Virus record (IMG/VR): IMGVR_UViG_2675903413_000004
Coordinates: 1-17,605 of that record
Reading direction: 5' to 3' (one strand)
Source: a virus
Lineage: Duplodnaviria; Heunggongvirae; Uroviricota; Caudoviricetes
DNA: 17,605 bases
Shown: positions 7,601-17,605 of the stretch, piece after piece
How the letters are laid out: each line of letters opens with the position of its first letter
Position numbering within the stretch: position 1 is the stretch's first letter
Program-made: the position numbers and the translations under genes
The notes under the pieces: generated by a model
The model's database searches: none
What the model was told of the DNA's origin: nothing
What the model saw: only the letters and a program-made list of their open reading frames with translations

Positions 7601-8304
7601 GCTTTCCCCTTAATATCCTGCGCCTTAACATCCCAGCCAAAACCTATGGCCTGAAGCTGACGCGCCAGCGCCTTGTCAAATTCATCATCATTCATGCCCA
7701 GAAACACACGAGCAGGAAGATCCACTGTCCAGCTGGTTTTCACGGCTTTATTACTGAGTTTTCGAATCAGCAGCCCCGCCTGGCTGTATGGCATCGTTTT
7801 GGTGATTTCGCCCTGTGTGGGCTTTTTCCATCTCTTACCGGTTTTCACCCGGTACCCCAGCGCCCGTAATTTTTTGGCCTGGGCAGGCGTCGCCATTTTC
7901 CCGGCCTCTGCCTTCCGTGGCTGATTACTGCGGCTGACCTTTACGCGCATTCCGTTTTGTTGCGCGTACCCCACCGTTCCGGCTGGTACCGGCGCTTCCC
8001 CGTTCCGGTATCCACCGCCCTGTAAATAGATCCGCACAGCCTGAATTTCTGGCATTTCACGGATATGCAGCAGCTTTGGCAGGTTGCGCAGCATCTTCCC
8101 TTTGCGTTTTGTCTTACGTCCCGGCCACTTCTGGCCATCCGGGGATTCCTGATTGCGCACATGCCGCTTTGCCGCAGCAATCACGCCATATTTGGCCAGA
8201 CGCCAGATCAGACGCTGCCGTTTTCTCGGCGGCAGCTCCATGCTGGCCAGTGCCTTGCGCAATTCGGCCAGCTGTTTTTTATTCAGCTCGCCACCGGCAA
8301 TCAT
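7597..8304 (-). CDS. Phage virion morphogenesis / tail completion protein (P2 gpS-like) with a long basic C-terminal extension
   Basis: 235 aa; N-terminal region (LAELRKALASM...ESPDGQKW...GYAQQNGMR) fits the PDG..W / YA..Q.G pattern of the virion-morphogenesis (gpS) family as recalled. ATGA overlaps at both ends (8301-8304 and 7597-7600). Confidence 0.5.
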   Translation of the reverse strand: MIAGGELNKKQLAELRKALASMELPPRKRQRLIWRLAKYGVIAAAKRHVRNQESPDGQKWPGRKTKRKGKMLRNLPKLLHIREMPEIQAVRIYLQGGGYRNGEAPVPAGTVGYAQQNGMRVKVSRSNQPRKAEAGKMATPAQAKKLRALGYRVKTGKRWKKPTQGEITKTMPYSQAGLLIRKLSNKAVKTSWTVDLPARVFLGMNDDEFDKALARQLQAIGFGWDVKAQDIKGKA

Positions 8305-8537
8305 TCGCTATCCCCCACCGGCGCACCGGCCTCATCCACGCTGTAAATACTGGCGGTCAGTGCCGTCCAGATTTCAGGCTCAACCAGTGACCAGCGCTCA
8401 CCCCGCCACGGAATAGCCCCGTTTTCGTCCTGCCTGATCACCAGTTCTTCTACCATCGGAACAGTCAGCACCACAGTGGCCACTTCCTCATCCTCCACCG
8501 ACACATCCCAGTCAGGTTCAGCTTCACTCAGCCCCAC
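8301..8537 (-). CDS. Small acidic hypothetical protein, first gene of the late operon (possibly 5'-truncated)
   Basis: 78 aa, very Asp/Glu-rich, GTG start at 8535-8537 directly abutting the junction with the oppositely oriented terminase fragment; stop overlaps the next gene's ATG. Confidence 0.35.
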   Translation of the reverse strand: MGLSEAEPDWDVSVEDEEVATVVLTVPMVEELVIRQDENGAIPWRGERWSLVEPEIWTALTASIYSVDEAGAPVGDSE

Positions 8538-8554
8538 TTCATCCAGTAGTTCCC

Positions 8555-8926
8555 TGTCTGGGAGTAGACGTTACCGGCATTGGCCAGGGTGTTTTTGACA
8601 ACATTCAGCATTTTGCCATGCGCGTGGCCGTCCCTATTCGTTACGACCTGAACACCAAAAATCAACTGGTGCTGAAAGCGGTGGACGTGGTGGAAAGCCA
8701 ACGTATTGAGTGGGATAAAAACCTGAAAGAGATCGCGGCCAGCTTTATGTCTGTGCGCCGAACCACCACACAAAGCGGCAACGCCATGACGTTTGTCGCT
8801 GACCGCAGCCAGGATACTGGCCACGCGGAGGCGTTCTGGGCGATTACCCACGGTCTGCATAACGAACCCCTTAACTATGAAAACAAACCTAAATCCCGCT
8901 GGGGTGTAAGGAAAGAGGCAGCATGA
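8555..8926 (+). pseudogene. 5'-truncated remnant of terminase large (ATPase) subunit gene (gpP-like), C-terminal ~100-120 codons only
   Basis: Frame is open from 8438 to a stop at 8924-8926 that overlaps the portal ATG, but the only ATG (8618) has no SD. Protein-like sequence (..CLGVDVTGIGQGVFDNIQHFA-MRVAV..) begins about 8555 with no start codon. In P2-family phages the gene immediately upstream of the portal is terminase P. Confidence 0.4.
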
Positions 8927-9984
8927 GTAAAAAGAAACGCTTTGTTAAGCGCGACCAGCGCGGCGACAAATCAAAAAAGATGAGCATTATCACATTCGGC
9001 AAACCTGAACCGGTTCTGACTACCGGCACAGATTACCGTGATATCTGGTACGACAATGCCGCCGATCACTTCACCCAGCCGATTGACCGGCTGGCACTCG
9101 CACAGCTGATTAATCTTAACGGTCAGCACGGCGGCATCATTCACGCCCGCAAAAACATGATTGTTTCAGACTACCTGGGGGGCGGGCTTATTCACGACCA
9201 GCTGGAAGCGGCAGCGTTTGACTATATAACCTTTGGGGATATTGCGATTGCCAAAATTCGTAACGGCTGGGGCGACGTGATCGCACTTGAACCCTTGCCC
9301 GGTCTGTATATTCGCCGCCGCAAAGTCAGAGATAACGCCCTGGATAAGCCCGGTGACTACGTGGTGTTACAGGAAGGAGAACCGCAGGTATGGCCAGAAG
9401 AAGATATTATCTTCATCAAAATGTATGACCCACAACAGCATATCTACGGACTGCCGGACTACATCGGCGGTGTGCATTCCGCGTTACTTAACAGTGAAGC
9501 GGTCATTTTCCGACGCCGCTATTACCACAACGGTGCGCACACAGGCGGTATTCTTTATACTCGCGATCCCAGCATGACGGACGAAATGGAGGAAGAAATT
9601 GAACAGCAGCTGCGTGACAGCAAAGGGATCGGTAACTTCTCCACCATCCTTGTAAACATTCCCGGTGGAGACGGCGACGCCATCAAATTCATTGAAATGG
9701 GGGATATTTCCGCGAAGGATGAATTTGCCAACATCAAAAACATCAGCGCCCAGGACATTCTGAACGCGCACCGTTTCCCTGCCGGCCTCGCCGGTATTGT
9801 CCCGCAGAACACTGCCGGACTGGGGGATGTTGAAAAGGCTGAACGCATTTACAAGAAAAGCGAAATTGCCCCCATCCAGCGCCGTTTCATGCTGGCCGTT
9901 AACAACGATCCTGAAATACCGGAAAGGCTACACCTTAACTTTGATTTAAGTTACACAGAATCAACGGATAAGGGTGCGGCATGA
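8923..9984 (+). CDS. Q: Portal protein (P2 gpQ-like)
   Basis: 353 aa starting MSKKKRF... with GAGG SD 5 nt upstream. Long stretches (DYRDIWYD, RLALAQLINLN, HGGI, ARKNMIV, AVIFRRRYYHNGAH, ISAKDEFANIKNISAQD-LNAHRFPAGLAGI-PQNT-GLGD) match the P2 portal as recalled; needs search confirmation. Confidence 0.7.
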   Translation: MSKKKRFVKRDQRGDKSKKMSIITFGKPEPVLTTGTDYRDIWYDNAADHFTQPIDRLALAQLINLNGQHGGIIHARKNMIVSDYLGGGLIHDQLEAAAFDYITFGDIAIAKIRNGWGDVIALEPLPGLYIRRRKVRDNALDKPGDYVVLQEGEPQVWPEEDIIFIKMYDPQQHIYGLPDYIGGVHSALLNSEAVIFRRRYYHNGAHTGGILYTRDPSMTDEMEEEIEQQLRDSKGIGNFSTILVNIPGGDGDAIKFIEMGDISAKDEFANIKNISAQDILNAHRFPAGLAGIVPQNTAGLGDVEKAERIYKKSEIAPIQRRFMLAVNNDPEIPERLHLNFDLSYTESTDKGAA

Positions 9985-10034
9985 GGCGAAAGAGGCTAAA
10001 ATCCAGGCATCATTTAACAGCTGGAGCATGGAAT

Positions 10035-10304
10035 ATGCGAGTTCTGAAAATCGAATGCCCGGAATGCGGCTCAAAGGCTGTTATTCGTAAAACAAACAGG
10101 AAGCACCGGCAGATTGCCGATATTTACTGTGCCTGTTCAGATGTTGAGTGTGGCCACACGTTTGTTATGAATCTGACGTTCTCCCACACTCTCAGCCCCA
10201 GCGCTAAAACGGGTGATGCGATGGTGCAAAAAATACTGAATGCACTTTCACCCGATCAGCGCCAGATGGCATTAGACCTACTGAAAGCGACTCCCGCCGC
10301 CTGA
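10035..10304 (+). CDS. ogr: Ogr/Delta-family zinc-finger late-gene transcriptional activator
   Basis: ORF track 9981..10304; the ATG at 10035 has GGAG 8 nt upstream and places the zinc finger at the N-terminus as in Ogr. Motif CPECG-x20-CACSDVECGHTF matches the Ogr/Delta C-x2-C...C-x4-C-x2-TF signature. The 9981 start (ATGA-coupled to portal stop) is not excluded. Confidence 0.75.
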   Translation: MRVLKIECPECGSKAVIRKTNRKHRQIADIYCACSDVECGHTFVMNLTFSHTLSPSAKTGDAMVQKILNALSPDQRQMALDLLKATPAA

Positions 10305-10484
10305 AATGCCCCCATTCTGGGGGCGTTGCCCTTCCTTTTTAACTATTTCGCGAACCTCTCCCGCAAGCTCTCCAATCCAGGCCAAAGCGATTGTTTTTTC
10401 TCTCTGGTTACTTTCGTAAACATGGGCAATTTTGGCCAATAACTCAATGCGTTCCAGCTGTGCCGACGCCTCCAAAAGATCCAT
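10278..10484 (-). CDS. Hypothetical small protein (68 aa) between replication gene and late activator
   Basis: ATG at 10482-10484 preceded by GGGGG 4 nt upstream; N-terminal 50 residues look helical and protein-like. The 3' end overlaps the ogr stop and the hairpin, so the true end is doubtful. Confidence 0.25.
   Translation of the reverse strand: MDLLEASAQLERIELLAKIAHVYESNQREKTIALAWIGELAGEVREIVKKEGQRPQNGGISGGGSRFQ
10308..10340 (+). terminator. Possible (non-canonical) terminator after the late activator gene
   Basis: Perfect 6-bp GC stem GCCCCC (10308-10313), loop ATTCT, GGGGGC (10319-10324), but the T5 run (10336-10340) is 11 nt downstream rather than adjacent. Confidence 0.3.
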
Positions 10485-10603
10485 TTAGCCCCCACAAGCA
10501 ATAAATAACTGGATATACATACAGTACACCTTAAAGCACGAATTGTGAAATTTAATTTCCTGCCATCTACTGACAAATGAATGCCTTTCACATAATTACA
10601 CCG

Positions 10604-12625
10604 CTATAACCACCCCGGCCACAGTTCCTGCAATGGCTCGTTTTGAGTCTCTTTAAGCCGCCCGTTGCGGTAAATCAGAGCGCCCTGACCAAATCTCAAA
10701 CCACTACCCCGCAAGAGAATGGCTATTTCTTCATCAGAACCATCAAAACCCCGACTGCGTAATTCCAGTTTTAACCGTCTGCGGGTTCCCCCCTCCGTAC
10801 AGTTATTGACAGAACTCCAAGGGGCGGCGTTGCCGCCAGAAAAACCCGCCTCCGCTGGCGCTTCGGCCAACTTCGCAACCTTTTGCCACTTAACCAGACG
10901 GGTGCAAACTTCTGAATCAGGAACCAAAGGAGAATAAACCCCCTGTATGCGCTGCACGTCCTCTGCATACTCGTTGCCCTGTTCCGTAATTTCATAGGCC
11001 AGACGAACAACCAGATCACGGCGGGCAACCAGTGCACCGCCCTGCGCCTGGGTATATGCAGCCCAGTCCCCGACATCAGCAGCGGCCAGAACCGCATCCA
11101 TTCTGCGATCGGTCAGCACCTGATCCCGCAACCGACGCAGCTCACGCCAGACAGTTACCGGCGCACCACCAATCTGCTGAAACTGACGAATACGCCAGCG
11201 TGAAGCCCATGCAGAAACGGACTTAGCCATATCACGCAGGTTTTCGCCGGTTTCTTCGTCATGCTCACCATCCAGCGCAAAACCATCAATATTTTTTGAA
11301 ATGTATTTCGCGATGTAGCCCGTGGCCGAACCTTTGGCGGGATCGATAGCTTCAACATGAAAACGCGCCTTCAGCGCCTTTTCAGATTGCAGTTCTTCAG
11401 AATCGGTAATTCTGGCGTGATAGCAAAGAATATCGCGTACCGTGTCCACGTCATGCGGACGCATAAAAAGCAACATATGCCAGTGCGGTGTCCCGTCATG
11501 GTGAGGCTCAACAACCCGAAACCCAAATACATGAATACCCGCACGCGAGATCGCTGCGCGTGCTTTTGCCCATACGCCGCATAAATAGCGCTGGGTATCC
11601 TGCGGCGTACATCCATCCCATTGCGATACAAAGCCACCTTTGCTGTGCACTGCGTGGAAACGTGATGGCGCGGTGATGGTGTAAAACTCACCGGCCAGCC
11701 CTTCTTCATTGGCCATATCTTCAAACCCTCGCATTCTTACCATTAGTTCACATCGACGGATCGCCGGATTTGCAACGCTGCGGTGCACCATGCTGTCCAG
11801 TGCAATGCGCAGCCCCTCATCATTCAGCAGATCAAACTTTTTAAAGAACTCCAGATTCCGCTTTTTCTGGTCTATCCATTCGTCCAGTGTTTTGCGGGAT
11901 ACATAAGCGCTGGCCGCTTTTTGTACCTGTCCCACCGCGATGGCCATATGTTCGCGCTGCATATCACGCGCACGTTTAAGACGTAGGTACCACCATTCCG
12001 GCGCCATCATGCGCAGTATCCCGGATTCCGCCTTACGCATTTCCAGTTGACCTTCATTGGCCTCATGTTCAGCCCAGTACGGCGGCTGGTTATTCAGCAT
12101 CAGGCAACCCGCGCAAAGATGGCGGTATGATTCCAAGGTGCGGCGATGCAGCTCTCTGGCGTCGTCAGTGCCAGAGTCAAACTGTTCGGTGAAGTCATAA
12201 AGTGACTGGGAAATCCAACCAGATACCTGGCCAGCCAGTTTTTTAAGATCAGGACGGTCTAGTGACGGCAAGCGCTCCAGCGACTTACCAAAAGGAAGAT
12301 CAGCAGCGTCAGCGGCCAGCGAGTAACGCGCAGCCACTTTGCGCAGACGTGGCAATACACTCCCGCCGATAGTCTGGCGCAGGAATGTATTGGCACGGCG
12401 ACGCCCGTCACGACCAGCAAACAGCTTTTCGTAACGACGGCCAAAATACCCGGCTAACCAGTCGGGTATCTCATGAAGGTACTGTGAGCGCCATTCGTAA
12501 TCCTGCGGGTTAACCGCCCACAGGCGGCGCTCAGTGAGCGTGGCGTCTGTAGGTGTACCCGGTGCGAACGTTTCACGCCGCCAGGTATCGACGGCGTGAT
12601 GTTGGCCATTGGCGACAGGAGTCAT
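10604..12625 (-). CDS. Rolling-circle replication initiation protein (P2 gpA / 186 RepA family, HUH endonuclease)
   Basis: 673 aa; HUH-like motif GTPHWHMLLF and catalytic-tyrosine motif GYIAKYISKNIDG; position downstream of the cII-early operon as in P2/186. ATG at 12623-12625. Confidence 0.8.
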   Translation of the reverse strand: MTPVANGQHHAVDTWRRETFAPGTPTDATLTERRLWAVNPQDYEWRSQYLHEIPDWLAGYFGRRYEKLFAGRDGRRRANTFLRQTIGGSVLPRLRKVAARYSLAADAADLPFGKSLERLPSLDRPDLKKLAGQVSGWISQSLYDFTEQFDSGTDDARELHRRTLESYRHLCAGCLMLNNQPPYWAEHEANEGQLEMRKAESGILRMMAPEWWYLRLKRARDMQREHMAIAVGQVQKAASAYVSRKTLDEWIDQKKRNLEFFKKFDLLNDEGLRIALDSMVHRSVANPAIRRCELMVRMRGFEDMANEEGLAGEFYTITAPSRFHAVHSKGGFVSQWDGCTPQDTQRYLCGVWAKARAAISRAGIHVFGFRVVEPHHDGTPHWHMLLFMRPHDVDTVRDILCYHARITDSEELQSEKALKARFHVEAIDPAKGSATGYIAKYISKNIDGFALDGEHDEETGENLRDMAKSVSAWASRWRIRQFQQIGGAPVTVWRELRRLRDQVLTDRRMDAVLAAADVGDWAAYTQAQGGALVARRDLVVRLAYEITEQGNEYAEDVQRIQGVYSPLVPDSEVCTRLVKWQKVAKLAEAPAEAGFSGGNAAPWSSVNNCTEGGTRRRLKLELRSRGFDGSDEEIAILLRGSGLRFGQGALIYRNGRLKETQNEPLQELWPGWL

Positions 12626-13482
12626 GCGCAGGCCATCGCTATAGAACCAAGCGGCGACTTCAGAATTAACTCTGCGGCAACTTTCTGGCTTGCAGCTGCG
12701 GCACCAACACTACGTGGGGCATTAATGCGAACGGCTTCAAATCCGGCGTACAGGTAATGCACCATTTCCAGATCGGCATTAGAGGCCACAACCGGCACAC
12801 CTTTTCTGGCCAGACGGCGCAACTTACGCGCCAGCCTCCCCTGATCCATGTGCGAAAAACCGCGCTCATGGTAAGCGGTGAAATTGTCGCTTTCAGTCAG
12901 ATAAGGCGGATCACAGTAAACAACGTCATTCCCGTCCCGAACCAAATCGAGCGTTTCTGAATAGTGGGCAGTAATGAACGTTGCGCGTTTCGCTTTTTCA
13001 GCAAAGGCACGGATTTCATCAGCGGGAAAATAAGGCTTTTTGTACTTACCGAACGGGACGTTGAACTGGCCTCGGCGATTATACCGGCACAGGCCATTGA
13101 AGCAGTGGCGATTCAGGTACAGGAAACGCGCAGCATTTTCAACAGATTCAGAACCGGCCTTACCACCAGAAAGATTGAAAGCATCACGCACTGCGTAATA
13201 GAAAATGGCACGGCTTTCTTCATCACCTAACGAACCGGCAGTAAACAGGATCTCCAGCTCATTCAGCAGCGCATCAGTGTGATACGCCATCGCCTTATAA
13301 AGATTAACCAGATCAGGATTCACATCTGCGATCAGATACTCGTCATAATCCGTATTCATCATGACAGCGCAGGAACCTGCGAACGGTTCAACCAGGCGTT
13401 TACCTTCTGGAAGGTGCGGACGCAGCATAGGCATAATGCGGGCTTTGCTGCCCACCCATTTAAGCGGAGTTTTTATTGCCAT
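12622..13482 (-). CDS. dam: DNA adenine methyltransferase, Dam family (N6-adenine, probable GATC specificity)
   Basis: ORF track starts at TTG 13503; first ATG is 13480-13482 (MAIKTPLKWVGSKARIM...). Motif I VEPFAGSCAV, motif IV DPPY, and FLYLNRHCFNGLCRYNRRGQFNVPFGKYKKPYFP almost identical in pattern to E. coli Dam. Stop overlaps the repA ATG (ATGA). Confidence 0.85.
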   Translation of the reverse strand: MAIKTPLKWVGSKARIMPMLRPHLPEGKRLVEPFAGSCAVMMNTDYDEYLIADVNPDLVNLYKAMAYHTDALLNELEILFTAGSLGDEESRAIFYYAVRDAFNLSGGKAGSESVENAARFLYLNRHCFNGLCRYNRRGQFNVPFGKYKKPYFPADEIRAFAEKAKRATFITAHYSETLDLVRDGNDVVYCDPPYLTESDNFTAYHERGFSHMDQGRLARKLRRLARKGVPVVASNADLEMVHYLYAGFEAVRINAPRSVGAAAASQKVAAELILKSPLGSIAMACA

Positions 13483-13706
13483 GCCGCACCGCCTTTGCTG
13501 CAAATCGCCGCGGCTTCTTCGCGGATCAACTCAACGATTTCCGTTGCGCTTAAACCTTCATTGGCTGCATGGGTGGCCAGCTTATTCAGACGGGTGGAAC
13601 ACAAATCAGCAGCAGCGGCTTTACCTTCCTGCGTGGCTTTGGTGAGCATTGCCAGCAGGTCAGTGACTGATTTTGTTGCGGGTAAATCCTGACGTGTCAT
13701 ATGCAT
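13473..13706 (-). CDS. Hypothetical early protein (77 aa)
   Basis: ATG at 13704-13706 with AGGA 9 nt upstream; Ala-rich helical protein; stop lies inside the start region of dam. Confidence 0.45.
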   Translation of the reverse strand: MHMTRQDLPATKSVTDLLAMLTKATQEGKAAAADLCSTRLNKLATHAANEGLSATEIVELIREEAAAICSKGGAAWQ

Positions 13707-13773
13707 TTTGGTTTCCTTAAGGCAAAAGAATCCCCGGCCACTTGAAACATGGCCAAAAAATTCAGGCGGTTAA

Positions 13774-14175
13774 TTAGTGAAAAGTGGGGTGTACTGTGGC
13801 AGCTGAGTAGTTCGGTACCGGAATCAGGTGCAGTTCATAGGTTGTCCGCCACCACTCCTGGATCAGTGCATTTATCTCGCCAACTCCCAGCGCCCCGGCT
13901 GTATAGAAAATCGCACGAATCCCCGCCAGCGCTTCTATCTGGGCTTCTTTGCTTTCCGCTTCGCGATACACGCAGCACCAGAAAGCGGCATTGATCGCCA
14001 GCCAGTGACGCGGATTCGTCATGTGCTCGGTGTCATTGAAGAAGAACGGATGCAAAGCGATGCGGCCATTTTTACTGGTGCTTTTCTCTGTAAACACTAC
14101 AGCGTAGTTATGCGGGACACCCCACACAGCCAGTTCAGCCCCCAACGATTTACCCTCAACGGAAATAATGGTCAT
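13774..14175 (-). CDS. Hypothetical early protein (133 aa)
   Basis: ATG at 14173-14175 overlaps the upstream stop TAA (14175-14177) by one nucleotide (TAATG); coding-like composition; no recognised motif. Confidence 0.5.
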   Translation of the reverse strand: MTIISVEGKSLGAELAVWGVPHNYAVVFTEKSTSKNGRIALHPFFFNDTEHMTNPRHWLAINAAFWCCVYREAESKEAQIEALAGIRAIFYTAGALGVGEINALIQEWWRTTYELHLIPVPNYSAATVHPTFH

Positions 14176-14798
14176 TAGTGATTCCCCTGTTGCTGGAACT
14201 TATGGACGATATGAGGTGCAATCACCATCTGTACCCCACTACTGCTATAAATTGGATGTGCCTTTTTGATCGGGCGGTTCGCGGTGCGCTTTGAAAAATC
14301 GCTGTCACGTAAACTGCCGAAACCTTCAAACGTTAACCGCGCCCGTGAAATGCCCTGGCGCAGTTGAATCATGTCCCGATAGCCCAGGCGTTCATAAATC
14401 TCACGCCAGCAACATTTGCTTAAGTGGGCTTTAAATGCCCCGGAACCAGAAGTAACCGCAGCAGCATGAAGCACCACGCCGCGCCACTCCGGTGTTAAGT
14501 TGTCCCACCATTCAGCGGCCTCGCTGCTTTCGTTGAAGTATTTGCGGCGGATCTGTTTTAAATGCTCCAGCCCGCGCTTTTGCTGTTCCTGGCTAATCGC
14601 CATAACGCCCCCTATAGTCCCATCAGACGACGCCACCACGGGCGGCGCGGCTGCTGGCCATTGAATTTGTACATGTGGCCAGGGTTCCAGCGCTGACCGT
14701 TTGGCAGTTCTATCCAGCCCGTTGAACCACTCGGCAACTGCATGGCTGGTGATTCTTTTTTCAGGTAAGTGACAAACGCTTTCATGGTGTTCCCTCAC
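14175..14798 (-). CDS. Hypothetical early protein (207 aa from GTG, or 142 aa from internal ATG at 14603)
   Basis: GTG start at 14796-14798 overlaps the cII stop (GTGA); alternative ATG at 14601-14603 has GGGGG 4 nt upstream. Trp-rich segment EWWDNLTPEWRGVV; no recognised family. Confidence 0.5.
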   Translation of the reverse strand: MREHHESVCHLPEKRITSHAVAEWFNGLDRTAKRSALEPWPHVQIQWPAAAPPVVASSDGTIGGVMAISQEQQKRGLEHLKQIRRKYFNESSEAAEWWDNLTPEWRGVVLHAAAVTSGSGAFKAHLSKCCWREIYERLGYRDMIQLRQGISRARLTFEGFGSLRDSDFSKRTANRPIKKAHPIYSSSGVQMVIAPHIVHKFQQQGNH

Positions 14799-15298
14799 AT
14801 CAGGCCGGTGGCGTTGGTTGTGACCAGCTCCACCGCCGCAGCCAGAACAGGCGCAGAGTGAATACGGCTTTCAACGGTATAAGCCAGCACGGATAAGCTA
14901 CGGATTGCATCGCGGGCACGATCCAGAATTTGAGTACGGCGGGCGGCAGTCATATAGCCAGTTGATACGGCTTCCCCAGCAATCGCGCCCACACTGGCTG
15001 TGGCACTCAGTGCGCACAACTGCATGTTGCCTTCTGTGGCATTGTTCACCGGCACGGATGGAAGGCAGTTAATCTGACCTAACATCCCATCAAGCAAACG
15101 CGCATCTTCGGTGTAATCCGTGATAGCCAAAAGCTCATCACAGGTCAGGCGGTGCGGTTGTGCTGGGTTCAGTTTGTTGCGCAGGATCTGCGGCCTCATA
15201 CCAACGGCAGCGGCCACATCTTCAAGATTGTGCTCAATTGCAAATGCTCGGCAAGCCGCATCAAAGTGCGCATGTTTAGAGGTCTGGTAATCAAACAT
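14795..15298 (-). CDS. cII: CII-like lysogeny-establishment transcriptional activator (phage 186 CII family)
   Basis: 167 aa beginning MFDYQTSKHAHFDAACRAFA..., with ..RNKLNPAQPH.. matching 186 CII as recalled; GGGAGAGG SD upstream; second gene of the operon divergent from cI. Confidence 0.65.
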   Translation of the reverse strand: MFDYQTSKHAHFDAACRAFAIEHNLEDVAAAVGMRPQILRNKLNPAQPHRLTCDELLAITDYTEDARLLDGMLGQINCLPSVPVNNATEGNMQLCALSATASVGAIAGEAVSTGYMTAARRTQILDRARDAIRSLSVLAYTVESRIHSAPVLAAAVELVTTNATGLM

Positions 15299-15328
15299 TG
15301 TTTGCCTCTCCCGAATCCGTAGGATGGA

Positions 15329-15550
15329 TTACGCGTTAAGCGAAATGTCACATTCGCTTAAAGCCTGAATAGTGAGCGCGGCCATGTTGACTTCGACCAA
15401 GCCTTTCTTCTGCTTACCCTTCGGCTTAATAGGTAATTTCCCGTATTCGATCAGGTTCCTGGCGGTTTCTTTGTTGGTACCAGTACGGCGGCAATACTCG
15501 TCTAAAGGCAGGTATGGCTCAGGGATGATGATTGTAATGTTCGGACGCAT
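15329..15550 (-). CDS. apl: Apl/Cox-like excisionase and lytic-switch regulator (phage 186 Apl family)
   Basis: ORF track starts at TTG 15583; first ATG is 15548-15550 (MRPNITIIIPEPYLPLDEYCRRTG...), GGAG 8 nt upstream. Small basic protein, first gene of the operon divergent from cI, as in 186. Confidence 0.6.
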   Translation of the reverse strand: MRPNITIIIPEPYLPLDEYCRRTGTNKETARNLIEYGKLPIKPKGKQKKGLVEVNMAALTIQALSECDISLNA

Positions 15551-15685
15551 GAGGCAAACTCCACAAGTTAACCTGTACGGCAATACAGGGTTATATAAGG
15601 CAACATTCGAAATATGGAGCCAGATTAATTCGTGTTTCGAGAAGTGTCAATTTTAATTTCTCGAATCGAGACTTATGGATTCGCT
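15551..15685. promoter_or_regulatory. Lysis-lysogeny switch region between apl and cI with candidate convergently firing promoters and TCGA-type repeats
   Basis: Minus-strand perfect -35 TTGACA (15650-15645) with weak -10 candidates 15-17 bp downstream (about 15629-15622), directed at apl. Plus-strand TTAACC (15568-15573) and TATATA (15592-15597), directed at cI. The two would fire toward each other. Palindrome CTCGA-A-TCGAG at 15660-15670 plus TTCGAA (15606-15611) and TTTCGAG (15635-15641). Confidence 0.35.
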
Positions 15686-16267
15686 ATGAGCACATTTAAA
15701 ATCGACCTAAACGTAGATAGCACACCGATTCTTGACAGGGTGATCGAGGCTTACGGATTTACGCAGAAGTTACAGCTCGCGGAACATCTGGACATGGCAG
15801 CCAGTTCTCTTTCTTCACGCTACAAGCGTGGAGTTTTCCCGGCAGACATTGTCGTGAAATGTGTAGCCGAAACAGGCGCTAATCTGGAGTGGCTGGCGAC
15901 AGGACAGGGACGTAAATTTAATGATGATGAATTAGACATACTCAAAATACCGCGCAGCAAGATTGTTGATGGCCAACTCTATGACGCTGGCACACTTATG
16001 CTTGATAAAGTCATCTTCCTGCCTGGTAAGCCCTTACCGCAACAACCGATTTGTGTTCTGGATGGCCTTGTTCAGTACATTGTTGACCAGTCTTATTCTG
16101 AAGTTTATGACGATGATTGGTTGGTTGAAGTTGAAGGAAAAACAAGCGTCCGCACTCTTACACGGATTCCGGTACGAAAAGTCAGAGTTAGCGGTGTTGG
16201 TATGGCATTTGATTGCGGAATTGACGACATAAAAATCATAGGCCGCGTTGTTCTGACGATAAAATAA
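15686..16267 (+). CDS. cI: CI immunity repressor (phage 186 CI family)
   Basis: ORF track starts at GTG 15632; ATG at 15686 gives a 193-aa product. Segments DRVIEAYGFTQKLQLAEH...SSLS.RY and ETGANLEWLATGQG resemble 186 CI as recalled; stop is 1 nt before the int ATG. Confidence 0.7.
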   Translation: MSTFKIDLNVDSTPILDRVIEAYGFTQKLQLAEHLDMAASSLSSRYKRGVFPADIVVKCVAETGANLEWLATGQGRKFNDDELDILKIPRSKIVDGQLYDAGTLMLDKVIFLPGKPLPQQPICVLDGLVQYIVDQSYSEVYDDDWLVEVEGKTSVRTLTRIPVRKVRVSGVGMAFDCGIDDIKIIGRVVLTIK

Positions 16268-16268
16268 A

Positions 16269-17309
16269 ATGAGCGTTCGTAAACTTCCTACAGGCGAATG
16301 GATCGCCGACTTCTACACCGTCAACCGCAGTAATGGCAAGAACGGGAAGCGTATACGTAAAAAATTTGCCACGAAAGGGGAAGCCCTGGCATTCGAAAAC
16401 CATACGCTTCAGAAAGTAGACGCAGCTCCGTGGCTGGGTGAAGGGAAGGACAAGCGAACTTTAATAGATCTGATAACAATGTGGTATGAACGCCACGGCG
16501 TAGCTTTGAGCAATGGCGAAAAGCGTAAAAATGCTATGACCTGGGCGGCGGAATGCATGGGATTCCCGCTGGCCACAGAATTTAATGCCCAGTTGTTCAC
16601 AGCCTACCGCGCTAAAAGGCTGGATGGGCATTATGCCCGTACCAACAGAGTATCTAAGGTTTCCCCGAAAACTATGAACCTTGAACATGCTTACTTCCTG
16701 GCTATGTTCAACGAGCTGAAACGGATTGGTGAATGGTCAGCACCCAACCCACTAGAAAACGTCAGACAGTATCGTACTGATGAAACCGAAATGGCTTTCC
16801 TCACTACCGAAGAAATTGATCGGCTTTTACTGGAATGCAAACGAAGTAAAGTTAAGTACCTAGAATTAGTTGTCAAAATCTGCCTTGCTACCGGCGCAAG
16901 GTGGAATGAGGCGGCAACGCTGAAAAGCTCCCAGATCGCCGGGGGTAAAGTCACGTTCGTCAAAACCAAAGGGAAGCGCAACAGAACAATTCCCCTTGAT
17001 GATGAACTTCTGTCCGAATTACCTGAAACAAAAGGCGCTCTGTTCCCCAAGCCCTGCTACAACGCTTTCCGCTCTGCTCTGGAACGTGCAGGCATTGAAC
17101 TCCCCTCCGGCCAGCTTACCCATGTACTGCGCCATACATTTGCCAGCCACTTTATGATGAACGGCGGAAACATTCTGGTTCTGCAAAAAATTCTCGGCCA
17201 CGCTGACATCACTATGACAATGCGTTATGCCCATTTCGCCCCAAGCCACCTTGAAGATGCCGTGCGACTTAACCCCTTAAAATGTCGCAAAAATGTCGCG
17301 ACAGCTTAG
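16269..17309 (+). CDS. int: Tyrosine-type site-specific integrase (P2/186 Int family)
   Basis: 346 aa; C-terminal catalytic signature ..ATGARWNEA.., HVLRHTFASHF, LGHADITMTMRYAHF (R...HxxR...Y); almost contiguous with cI, as in the 186 cI-int operon. Confidence 0.9.
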   Translation: MSVRKLPTGEWIADFYTVNRSNGKNGKRIRKKFATKGEALAFENHTLQKVDAAPWLGEGKDKRTLIDLITMWYERHGVALSNGEKRKNAMTWAAECMGFPLATEFNAQLFTAYRAKRLDGHYARTNRVSKVSPKTMNLEHAYFLAMFNELKRIGEWSAPNPLENVRQYRTDETEMAFLTTEEIDRLLLECKRSKVKYLELVVKICLATGARWNEAATLKSSQIAGGKVTFVKTKGKRNRTIPLDDELLSELPETKGALFPKPCYNAFRSALERAGIELPSGQLTHVLRHTFASHFMMNGGNILVLQKILGHADITMTMRYAHFAPSHLEDAVRLNPLKCRKNVATA

Positions 17310-17344
17310 AAATACTGCCGAATACTCACAGATATTAACTAACG

Positions 17345-17373
17345 TAACTTATTGATAACACTGTAAGTTATTG
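17345..17373. repeat. Direct repeats in the int-proximal arm (possible Int arm-type or IHF sites)
   Basis: TAACTTATTG (17345-17354) and TAAGTTATTG (17364-17373), 9/10 identical, in the AT-rich region between the int stop and the candidate core. Confidence 0.25.
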
Positions 17374-17427
17374 TTTTTCGTAGATAGTTGATGCTTTATA
17401 ATATAGCCTGTGCTATATCTGTATGTA

Positions 17428-17447
17428 ATGCAATCATCCCTCAAGGA
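17428..17447. repeat. Right copy of imperfect direct repeat (candidate attachment-site core)
   Basis: ATGCAATCATCCCTCAAGGA; see the left copy at 357-377. Lies 118 bp past the int stop. Confidence 0.35.
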
Positions 17448-17476
17448 TCGACGGGATTAGCAAGTCAGGAGGTCTT

Positions 17477-17605
17477 ATGAATGAGTTCAAGAGGTGTATG
17501 CGCGTGTTTAGTCATTCTCCCTTTAAAGTACGGTTAATGCTGCTCTCTATGTTGTGCGATATGGTCAACAACAAACCGCAGCAAGATAAACCTTCCGATA
17601 AATAG
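17477..17605 (+). CDS. Small ORF (42 aa) with strong ribosome-binding site; probably flanking host gene
   Basis: AGGAGG (17467-17472) 4 nt upstream of the ATG at 17477; MNEFKRCMRVFSHSPFKVRLMLLSMLCDMVNNKPQQDKPSDK; stop TAG is the last codon of the window. Confidence 0.35.
   Translation: MNEFKRCMRVFSHSPFKVRLMLLSMLCDMVNNKPQQDKPSDK

Follow-up and report, generated by a model that had tools for sequence, protein, structure and literature searches.

The P2 remnants present in Escherichia coli K-12 and B strains are defective prophages that were formed by deletion. Prophage degeneration by deletion is a well-described process, and the cryptic E. coli prophages DLP12, e14, Rac and Qin have lost morphogenesis genes by internal deletion and kept their repressor and integrase, the outcome being an immune prophage that is unable to propagate (PMC6379469). 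Two other types of elements also do without capsid genes. R-type tailocins, i.e., the pyocins derived from P2 tails and their relatives, have a P2-type sheath, tube, tape-measure, baseplate and lysis cassette, and P4-like satellites are integrated elements containing an integrase, replication genes and an Ogr/Delta-type activator. The prophage described here was analyzed as a stretch of 17,605 nt, which we refer to as the window, and it resembles each of these systems in the features mentioned; like the P4-like satellites, it is, in addition, a shortened integrated element (~18-19 kb in the present case). Its closest relatives are intact phages, and we conclude that the locus is, very probably, a recent and strain-private deletion scar inside a resident P2-like E. 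coli prophage.

The window is part of contig CXXP01000012.1 (379 kb) of the draft E. coli assembly GCA_001269265.1. Because the gene calls of this contig reproduce those of the window, we consider the window to be a genuine deposited sequence. The prophage is P2/HP1-like and belongs to the ESSI-2 group of the genus Quadragintavirus (Peduoviridae). Megablast analysis against phage records resulted in a 98% match to ESSI2_ev040 (NC_049393.1), a member of the same family and genus, that starts abruptly at window position 8557. Alignment showed that window 559-13482 is collinear with this phage at 96.5-98% identity (96-98% over the retained sequence), and the window has the gene order of the intact Quadragintavirus members ESSI2_ev040, the prophage of E. 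coli XYEH3934 and Cronobacter phage ESSI-2. Pfam matches to Phage_GPA (E 6e-105) and Ogr_Delta (E 9e-20) agree with its assignment as a P2-like prophage. Window 559-8558 corresponds to positions 5284-13283 of ESSI2_ev040 and window 8557-10323 to positions 18441-20208, and therefore about 5.16 kb of ESSI2_ev040 is absent from the window. In ESSI2_ev040, the genes on one of the strands are ordered as tail terminator, head-tail adaptor, a small gene, small terminase, P2-family major capsid and scaffold, and the genes for the large terminase (1,776 nt), the portal and a regulator are located divergently on the opposite strand.

When the whole window was compared with complete E. coli genomes, at least seven chromosomes showed 100.0% identity to it, with the matching sequences spread over 27.7 kb in three pieces. 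E. coli XYEH3934 carries an intact copy of the prophage (NZ_CP110978.1, ~3049-3078 kb), and its chromosomal positions 3050521-3078219 match the window in three collinear blocks. Using the locus numbering L002, in which 3001-30699 stands for chromosome 3050521-3078219, window 1-560 corresponds to L002 3001-3560, window 559-8558 to L002 8696-16695 and window 8557-17605 to L002 21651-30699. The two sequences differ by one mismatch in 17,605 nt and by two gaps of 5,137 and 4,957 bp. Hence, the window prophage and that of XYEH3934 are ~99.99% identical over all retained sequence and occupy the same integration region next to mntS, but the window lacks 4,957 bp spanning the head and packaging genes plus a divergent intergenic region, and 5,137 bp of the tail-fibre module, and its genes for the large terminase (TerL), a gpR-like protein, a gpI-like protein and a 566-aa late protein are truncated or fused.

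The original prediction had proposed that the head genes expected next to the tail operon are missing from the window, owing to a deletion of 5-6 kb. Both parts of this proposal hold: the missing segment amounts to 4,957 bp when measured against XYEH3934, and to ~5.16 kb against ESSI2_ev040. Alignment to the intact prophage allowed its endpoints to be mapped to the base. The segment corresponds to L002 16696-21652 (XYEH3934 3064216-3069172), and the junction is located at window 8557..8558, where a TC is common to both parental flanks (2-nt microhomology); comparison with ESSI2_ev040 gave the same breakpoint at 8557/8558. The deletion removed 249 nt (codons 1-83) of the 168-codon gpR-like tail-terminator gene; the entire genes for head completion (gpL-like), small terminase (gpM), P2-family major capsid (gpN) and scaffold (gpO); a divergent intergenic region of 161 bp; and 1,408 nt (codons 1-469; 79%) of the 591-codon TerL gene (gpP). 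The annotation of the XYEH3934 prophage lists exactly the head genes that were predicted to be missing. No scaffold, capsid, small-terminase or head-completion gene is present in the window, all parts of which align to the intact relative outside those genes. The intact relatives contain the scaffold, major capsid, small-terminase and head-completion genes between TerL and the tail genes, and the gene order at the junction is not shared by them: ESSI2_ev040 and the prophages of 22 complete E. coli genomes all have a full-length TerL gene.

As a consequence of the junction, region 8301-8926 consists of two truncated gene stubs placed back to back. Both open reading frames are C-terminal fragments, because their Pfam matches cover only the ends of the respective profiles. 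The plus-strand frame follows a TGA codon (8435-8437) and stays open from 8438 on, but its first part (8438-8556) is noncoding, being the complement of the gpR remnant. Protein-like sequence had been predicted to begin around 8555, which was accurate: homology to large terminases starts at 8557/8558. From there to 8926, the plus strand encodes residues 470-591 of the 591-residue TerL (gpP-like). Its translation matches Pfam Terminase_6C (E 6.6e-14, profile positions 59-154 of 155) and is identical to the C-terminus of the XYEH3934 TerL, WP_266057632.1 (591 aa). The idea that this frame is a remnant of terminase P, which called for similarity of the 8555-8926 translation to terminase C-termini, thus stands.

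A complete TerL combines an ATPase domain with an entire RNaseH-like nuclease, and residues 1-469 are absent from the stub. The stub has neither the ATPase domain nor the first 58 positions (the first third) of the nuclease profile, nor does it have a start codon and ribosome-binding site of its own, and with these domain parts missing it cannot be a functional terminase. As had been noted before, the frame that opens at 8438 contains a single ATG, at 8618, without a Shine-Dalgarno sequence. We found that this ATG is the first and only ATG, GTG or TTG codon of the frame and is located inside the domain, and that no AGGAG-like motif is present in the sequence before it, acattcagcattttgcc. The predicted ATGA overlap with the start of the 353-aa portal reading frame is also present, at 8923. 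The portal gene (gpQ-like; 8923..9984, plus strand; Pfam Phage_portal) is intact and 100% identical to that of XYEH3934, but the gene upstream of it and, probably, its promoter region have been lost. A portal gene and a 122-aa TerL stub are all that is left of the head and packaging module; because the rest of this module lies in the 4,957-bp gap, the element is a defective derivative and not a viable member of the group.

On the other side of the junction, window 8301..8558 (minus strand) encodes residues 84-168 of the 168-residue gpR-like tail terminator/completion protein. The 78-aa reading frame 8301-8537 that it contains overlaps the tail gene that follows, and its product matches positions 87-132 of the 133-position Pfam profile P2_Phage_GpR. 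The original prediction let the late operon begin with a GTG-start gene at 8537. The reading frame does exist, but the GTG is an internal codon of the truncated gpR-like gene. An in-frame stop on the minus strand lies four codons upstream of the junction, and therefore no fusion protein is encoded there. Downstream, the middle part of the late operon is retained (984..8304, minus strand). Based on Pfam matches, the XYEH3934 gene table and the gene calls of the source contig, it encodes a gpS-like tail completion protein, sheath (DUF2586), tube (HP1 Orf24), holin, M15 endolysin, spanins, tail chaperone, a DUF6890 protein, tape measure, a DUF2590 protein and baseplate J, and it is now without an evident upstream promoter. 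The small DUF6890 reading frame (4448-4642, minus strand) is located between the genes for the tail assembly chaperone (4639-4896) and the tape measure (2484-4451), overlapping each by 4 nt. This position matches that of the frameshift-extension part of tail assembly chaperones (P2 E/E+E'), and the DUF6890 sequence may be expressed as a chaperone extension and not as a separate protein.

A second deletion, of ~5.1 kb and situated 8 kb away, had escaped the original prediction, as had the truncation of the left-hand gene at the head-gene junction. This junction is located at window 559..560, with a 2-nt microhomology (TA) and 5,137 bp missing (L002 3561-8697). Besides the tail-fibre gene and the gene for tail-fibre assembly, the deletion took two hypothetical genes, most of the gene for the 566-aa late protein and the 3' end of the gpI-like gene. 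Comparison of the translations showed that it generated an in-frame chimeric reading frame of 186 aa (424..984, minus strand), in which the first 142 aa of the gpI-like protein are followed by the last 44 aa of the 566-aa late protein. The sequences across the two joins (gaps L002 16696-21652 and 3561-8697) read ...GTTCCCTGTCTGGGAGTAG... and ...CTCTGCCAGTATCTGGATC.... Inspection of the two junctions side by side revealed no remnant of an IS element, no longer repeat and no run of Ns at either of them.

Two observations concern the positions of the junctions. The block between them (window 559-8558) is exactly 8,000 nt long when both 2-nt overlaps are counted and 7,996 nt without them; this spacing may be coincidental, may have resulted from one complex template-switching event or may be an artefact of processing. 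We also considered position 559 as a recurrent mosaic boundary, several genomes starting to match the window there, and rejected it: because the corresponding region of MFDS1019527 is an ordinary intact tail-fibre module, the match starts at 559 reflect only the window's own junction.

The excision is clean and its ends are joined at a 2-nt microhomology, which argues for illegitimate recombination and against loss by homologous recombination, site-specific recombination or a transposon. A single joining of a RecA-independent type at the TC would have fused the middle of the gpR-like gene (minus strand) to TerL codon 469/470 (plus strand), and the route may have been replication slippage, template switching or microhomology-mediated end joining. 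The two junctions have the same signature and the prophage differs from the intact copy at only one point, so that a single origin or closely spaced origins are possible; the two deletions may thus have arisen in one complex template-switching event or in two closely spaced events.

The portal gene is followed by an intact gene for an Ogr/Delta-type zinc-finger late activator (9981..10304, plus strand; Pfam Ogr_Delta, E 9e-20). According to Pfam (Phage_GPA, MethyltransfD12), the annotation of the identical prophage and the gene calls, the early and lysogeny region (10604..17309), likewise intact, encodes the gpA replication endonuclease, a Dam methylase, early proteins, CII-like and Cox-like proteins, the CI repressor and the integrase. 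Several features of this part of the window may be recorded. In between ogr and the end of the gpA gene, ~300 nt (10305-10603) contain a terminator-like hairpin (10319-10335) and a 68-aa hypothetical reading frame (10278-10484, minus strand); a search of the window, including this stretch, for the P2-type cos 19-mer with up to three mismatches gave no match. Relative to ESSI2_ev040 23375-26140, window 13468-15301 is mosaic: ~0.9 kb (gp30 and gp31 of ESSI2_ev040) is absent, the rest is 90% identical, and a gene resembling fil of phage 186 replaces the ESSI2_ev040 content. The integrase is ~74% identical to that of ESSI2_ev040, over a short stretch. The sole base difference from XYEH3934, at 14142 (C in the window, T in XYEH3934), is nonsynonymous (G12 here, R12 in XYEH3934) and falls in a 133-aa hypothetical early protein (13774-14175, minus strand); the XYEH3934 allele is probably the rare one. 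Since the allele of the window is thus likely to be common, the position was discarded as a sample-specific marker by which independent assemblies of the same reads might be recognized. The prophage lies between mntR and mntS, and its left end, with a serine acetyltransferase cargo gene, is outside the window. An 11-nt direct repeat, TATAATATAGC, is present at window 17397-17407, beyond the integrase gene, and at L002 1585-1595, next to mntR and outside the window, and is tentatively proposed as a candidate att core.

In P2, the late promoters are P_O and P_P. The late genes on the minus strand of the XYEH3934 prophage, which run from the scaffold gene to the end of the tail genes, form an operon of ~17 kb in which neighboring genes overlap or are at most 96 nt apart, and the deleted 161-bp region is the sole sizeable noncoding gap upstream of this operon and of the TerL-portal-ogr unit. 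Given this tight packing of the late genes, the divergent region is the obvious site for late promoters. It had been proposed that the deletion removed divergent late promoters. The 161-bp intergenic region is indeed gone, and by analogy with P_O and P_P of P2 it probably contained these promoters. No P2-type Ogr box (TGT-N12-ACA) was found in the deleted intergenic region, and the eight matches in the intact locus compare with 8.4 expected by chance; since this search located no promoters, their loss remains a deduction from gene spacing and from the comparison with P2. When the surroundings of the junction were scanned for sigma-70 promoters and terminators, nothing resembling a promoter was found to have arisen in front of the TerL stub or the portal gene. 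For the tail, lysis and portal genes that survive, the late promoters have probably been lost.

We then analyzed how widely the two junctions are distributed. When the two junctions were compared by megablast with 5,426 complete E. coli genomes, no match spanned either of them, although 22 of these genomes carry both halves of the head-gene junction apart from each other. No phage record spans that junction in a megablast search, and neither its exact 30-mer nor a degenerate 24-mer was found in collections of genome, viral and metagenome contigs. The two junction-specific proteins, the 186-aa chimera and the 102-aa TerL reading frame, are encoded by only one public contig, CXXP01000012.1. The absence of the junctions from the 5,426 genomes and the scanned collections indicates that the event is private and recent, and nothing in the searched genomes and collections points to an architecture that has been conserved. 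Over 10 kb of host flank, the identity to XYEH3934 is 99.6% (40 mismatches, 0.4%; no indels), compared with ~99.99% for the prophage. This difference implies that the deletions post-date a recent acquisition, and that the same phage has recently lysogenised different E. coli backgrounds. Prophages ~100% identical to this one are found in E. coli isolates from swine, chicken, humans, a hospital and wastewater. The locus thus differs in age from DLP12, e14, Rac and Qin: these prophages are old, widely inherited and heavily mutated, whereas the prophage in the window is private and undiverged, and represents the first step of decay.

Among the other explanations, the one that survives best is that the isolate carries an intact prophage and that two ~5-kb segments were dropped from the contig during assembly or processing. 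We consider this unlikely. It is true that a single draft assembly is the sole source of the junctions, that two deletions of similar size (5,137 and 4,957 bp) occur in an otherwise identical prophage, and that the 8,000-nt spacing, counting the overlaps, is an oddly round figure for something that arose naturally. However, the sequences at each junction share only 2 nt, whereas assemblers join on k-mers of tens of bases; scaffolders leave Ns, and none are present; the deleted segments are unique sequence, which is easy to assemble; and the 10-kb host flank does not contain any other indel relative to the reference. Moreover, the tail-fibre deletion produces an in-frame fusion, although the chance of that is one in three.

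Far less probable still is that the element is a selected functional derivative, either an R-type tailocin locus or a satellite-like element that depends on a helper and borrows the capsids of a related phage. The genes for integrase, CI, the Cox-like protein, gpA, Dam, Ogr, portal, sheath, tube, tape measure and lysis are intact, and both deletions are confined to virion structural modules, as might be expected for such a derivative. A working tailocin cannot be made, because the genes for the tail fibre and for its assembly have been deleted and only half of the tail terminator remains (gpR is cut to residues 84-168); R-type tailocins keep their tail fibres and a complete tail terminator. 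They are also devoid of portal, replication and integration genes and conserved across strains, the opposite of what is seen in the window, the junctions of which occur in 0 of the 5,426 E. coli genomes. The comparison with P4-like satellites is no closer: the window lacks a P4-type primase, capsid-remodelling genes of the sid/psu type and a family of relatives, and is instead a deleted copy of a helper-type phage itself. All of the retained genes are helper-type at ~100% identity, none redirects capsids or manipulates a helper, and no relatives with this architecture were found among the genomes and contigs searched, which gives no hint that it has been inherited or selected. In addition, the portal promoter has probably been lost, and the sequence is essentially identical to that of the intact phage, with no adaptive divergence. 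Equally slim is the chance that the prophage, with its two deletions, has just become a helper-dependent element, one that keeps the functions for integration, immunity and replication as well as Ogr and portal and that a co-resident or superinfecting intact Quadragintavirus could package and transfer. If this were true, it would illustrate how one or two deletions can turn a helper phage into a satellite of itself, possibly in one microhomology-mediated template-switching event with two junctions 8,000 nt apart.

Finally, the view that 8618-8926 is an independent small gene natively preceding the portal gene, for which the 102-aa reading frame called by the depositor from ATG 8618 might be taken as evidence, is refuted: all intact relatives have a 591-aa TerL at this place, the reading frame is 100% identical to the TerL C-terminus, the homology continues for 61 nt upstream of the ATG up to the breakpoint, and a Shine-Dalgarno sequence and nuclease-profile positions 1-58 are missing.

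We therefore return to a recent deletion scar in a resident prophage as the explanation that best fits the data. The portal gene is the only head gene left, both terminase functions are gone, and two other tail genes have lost parts in the tail-fibre deletion. Lacking a capsid, scaffold, small terminase, packaging ATPase and tail fibre, the element cannot produce virions or functional tails on its own. Loss of the promoters would leave the tail, lysis and portal genes transcriptionally orphaned, and the result would be an immune, integrated and largely disarmed prophage; the element probably still confers immunity. For annotation, reading frames 8301-8537 and 8618-8926 and the chimera 424-984 should be flagged as pseudogenes or deletion products and not as small phage genes, and prophage-prediction tools should score this prophage as defective. 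Beyond annotation, the significance is small: the locus is a case of ordinary, very recent prophage decay in one strain. What it offers is a base-resolved example of the first step of decay of a P2-like prophage, for which an isogenic intact copy is available, and it may be of use in teaching or as a benchmark for microhomology-mediated deletion in prophages.
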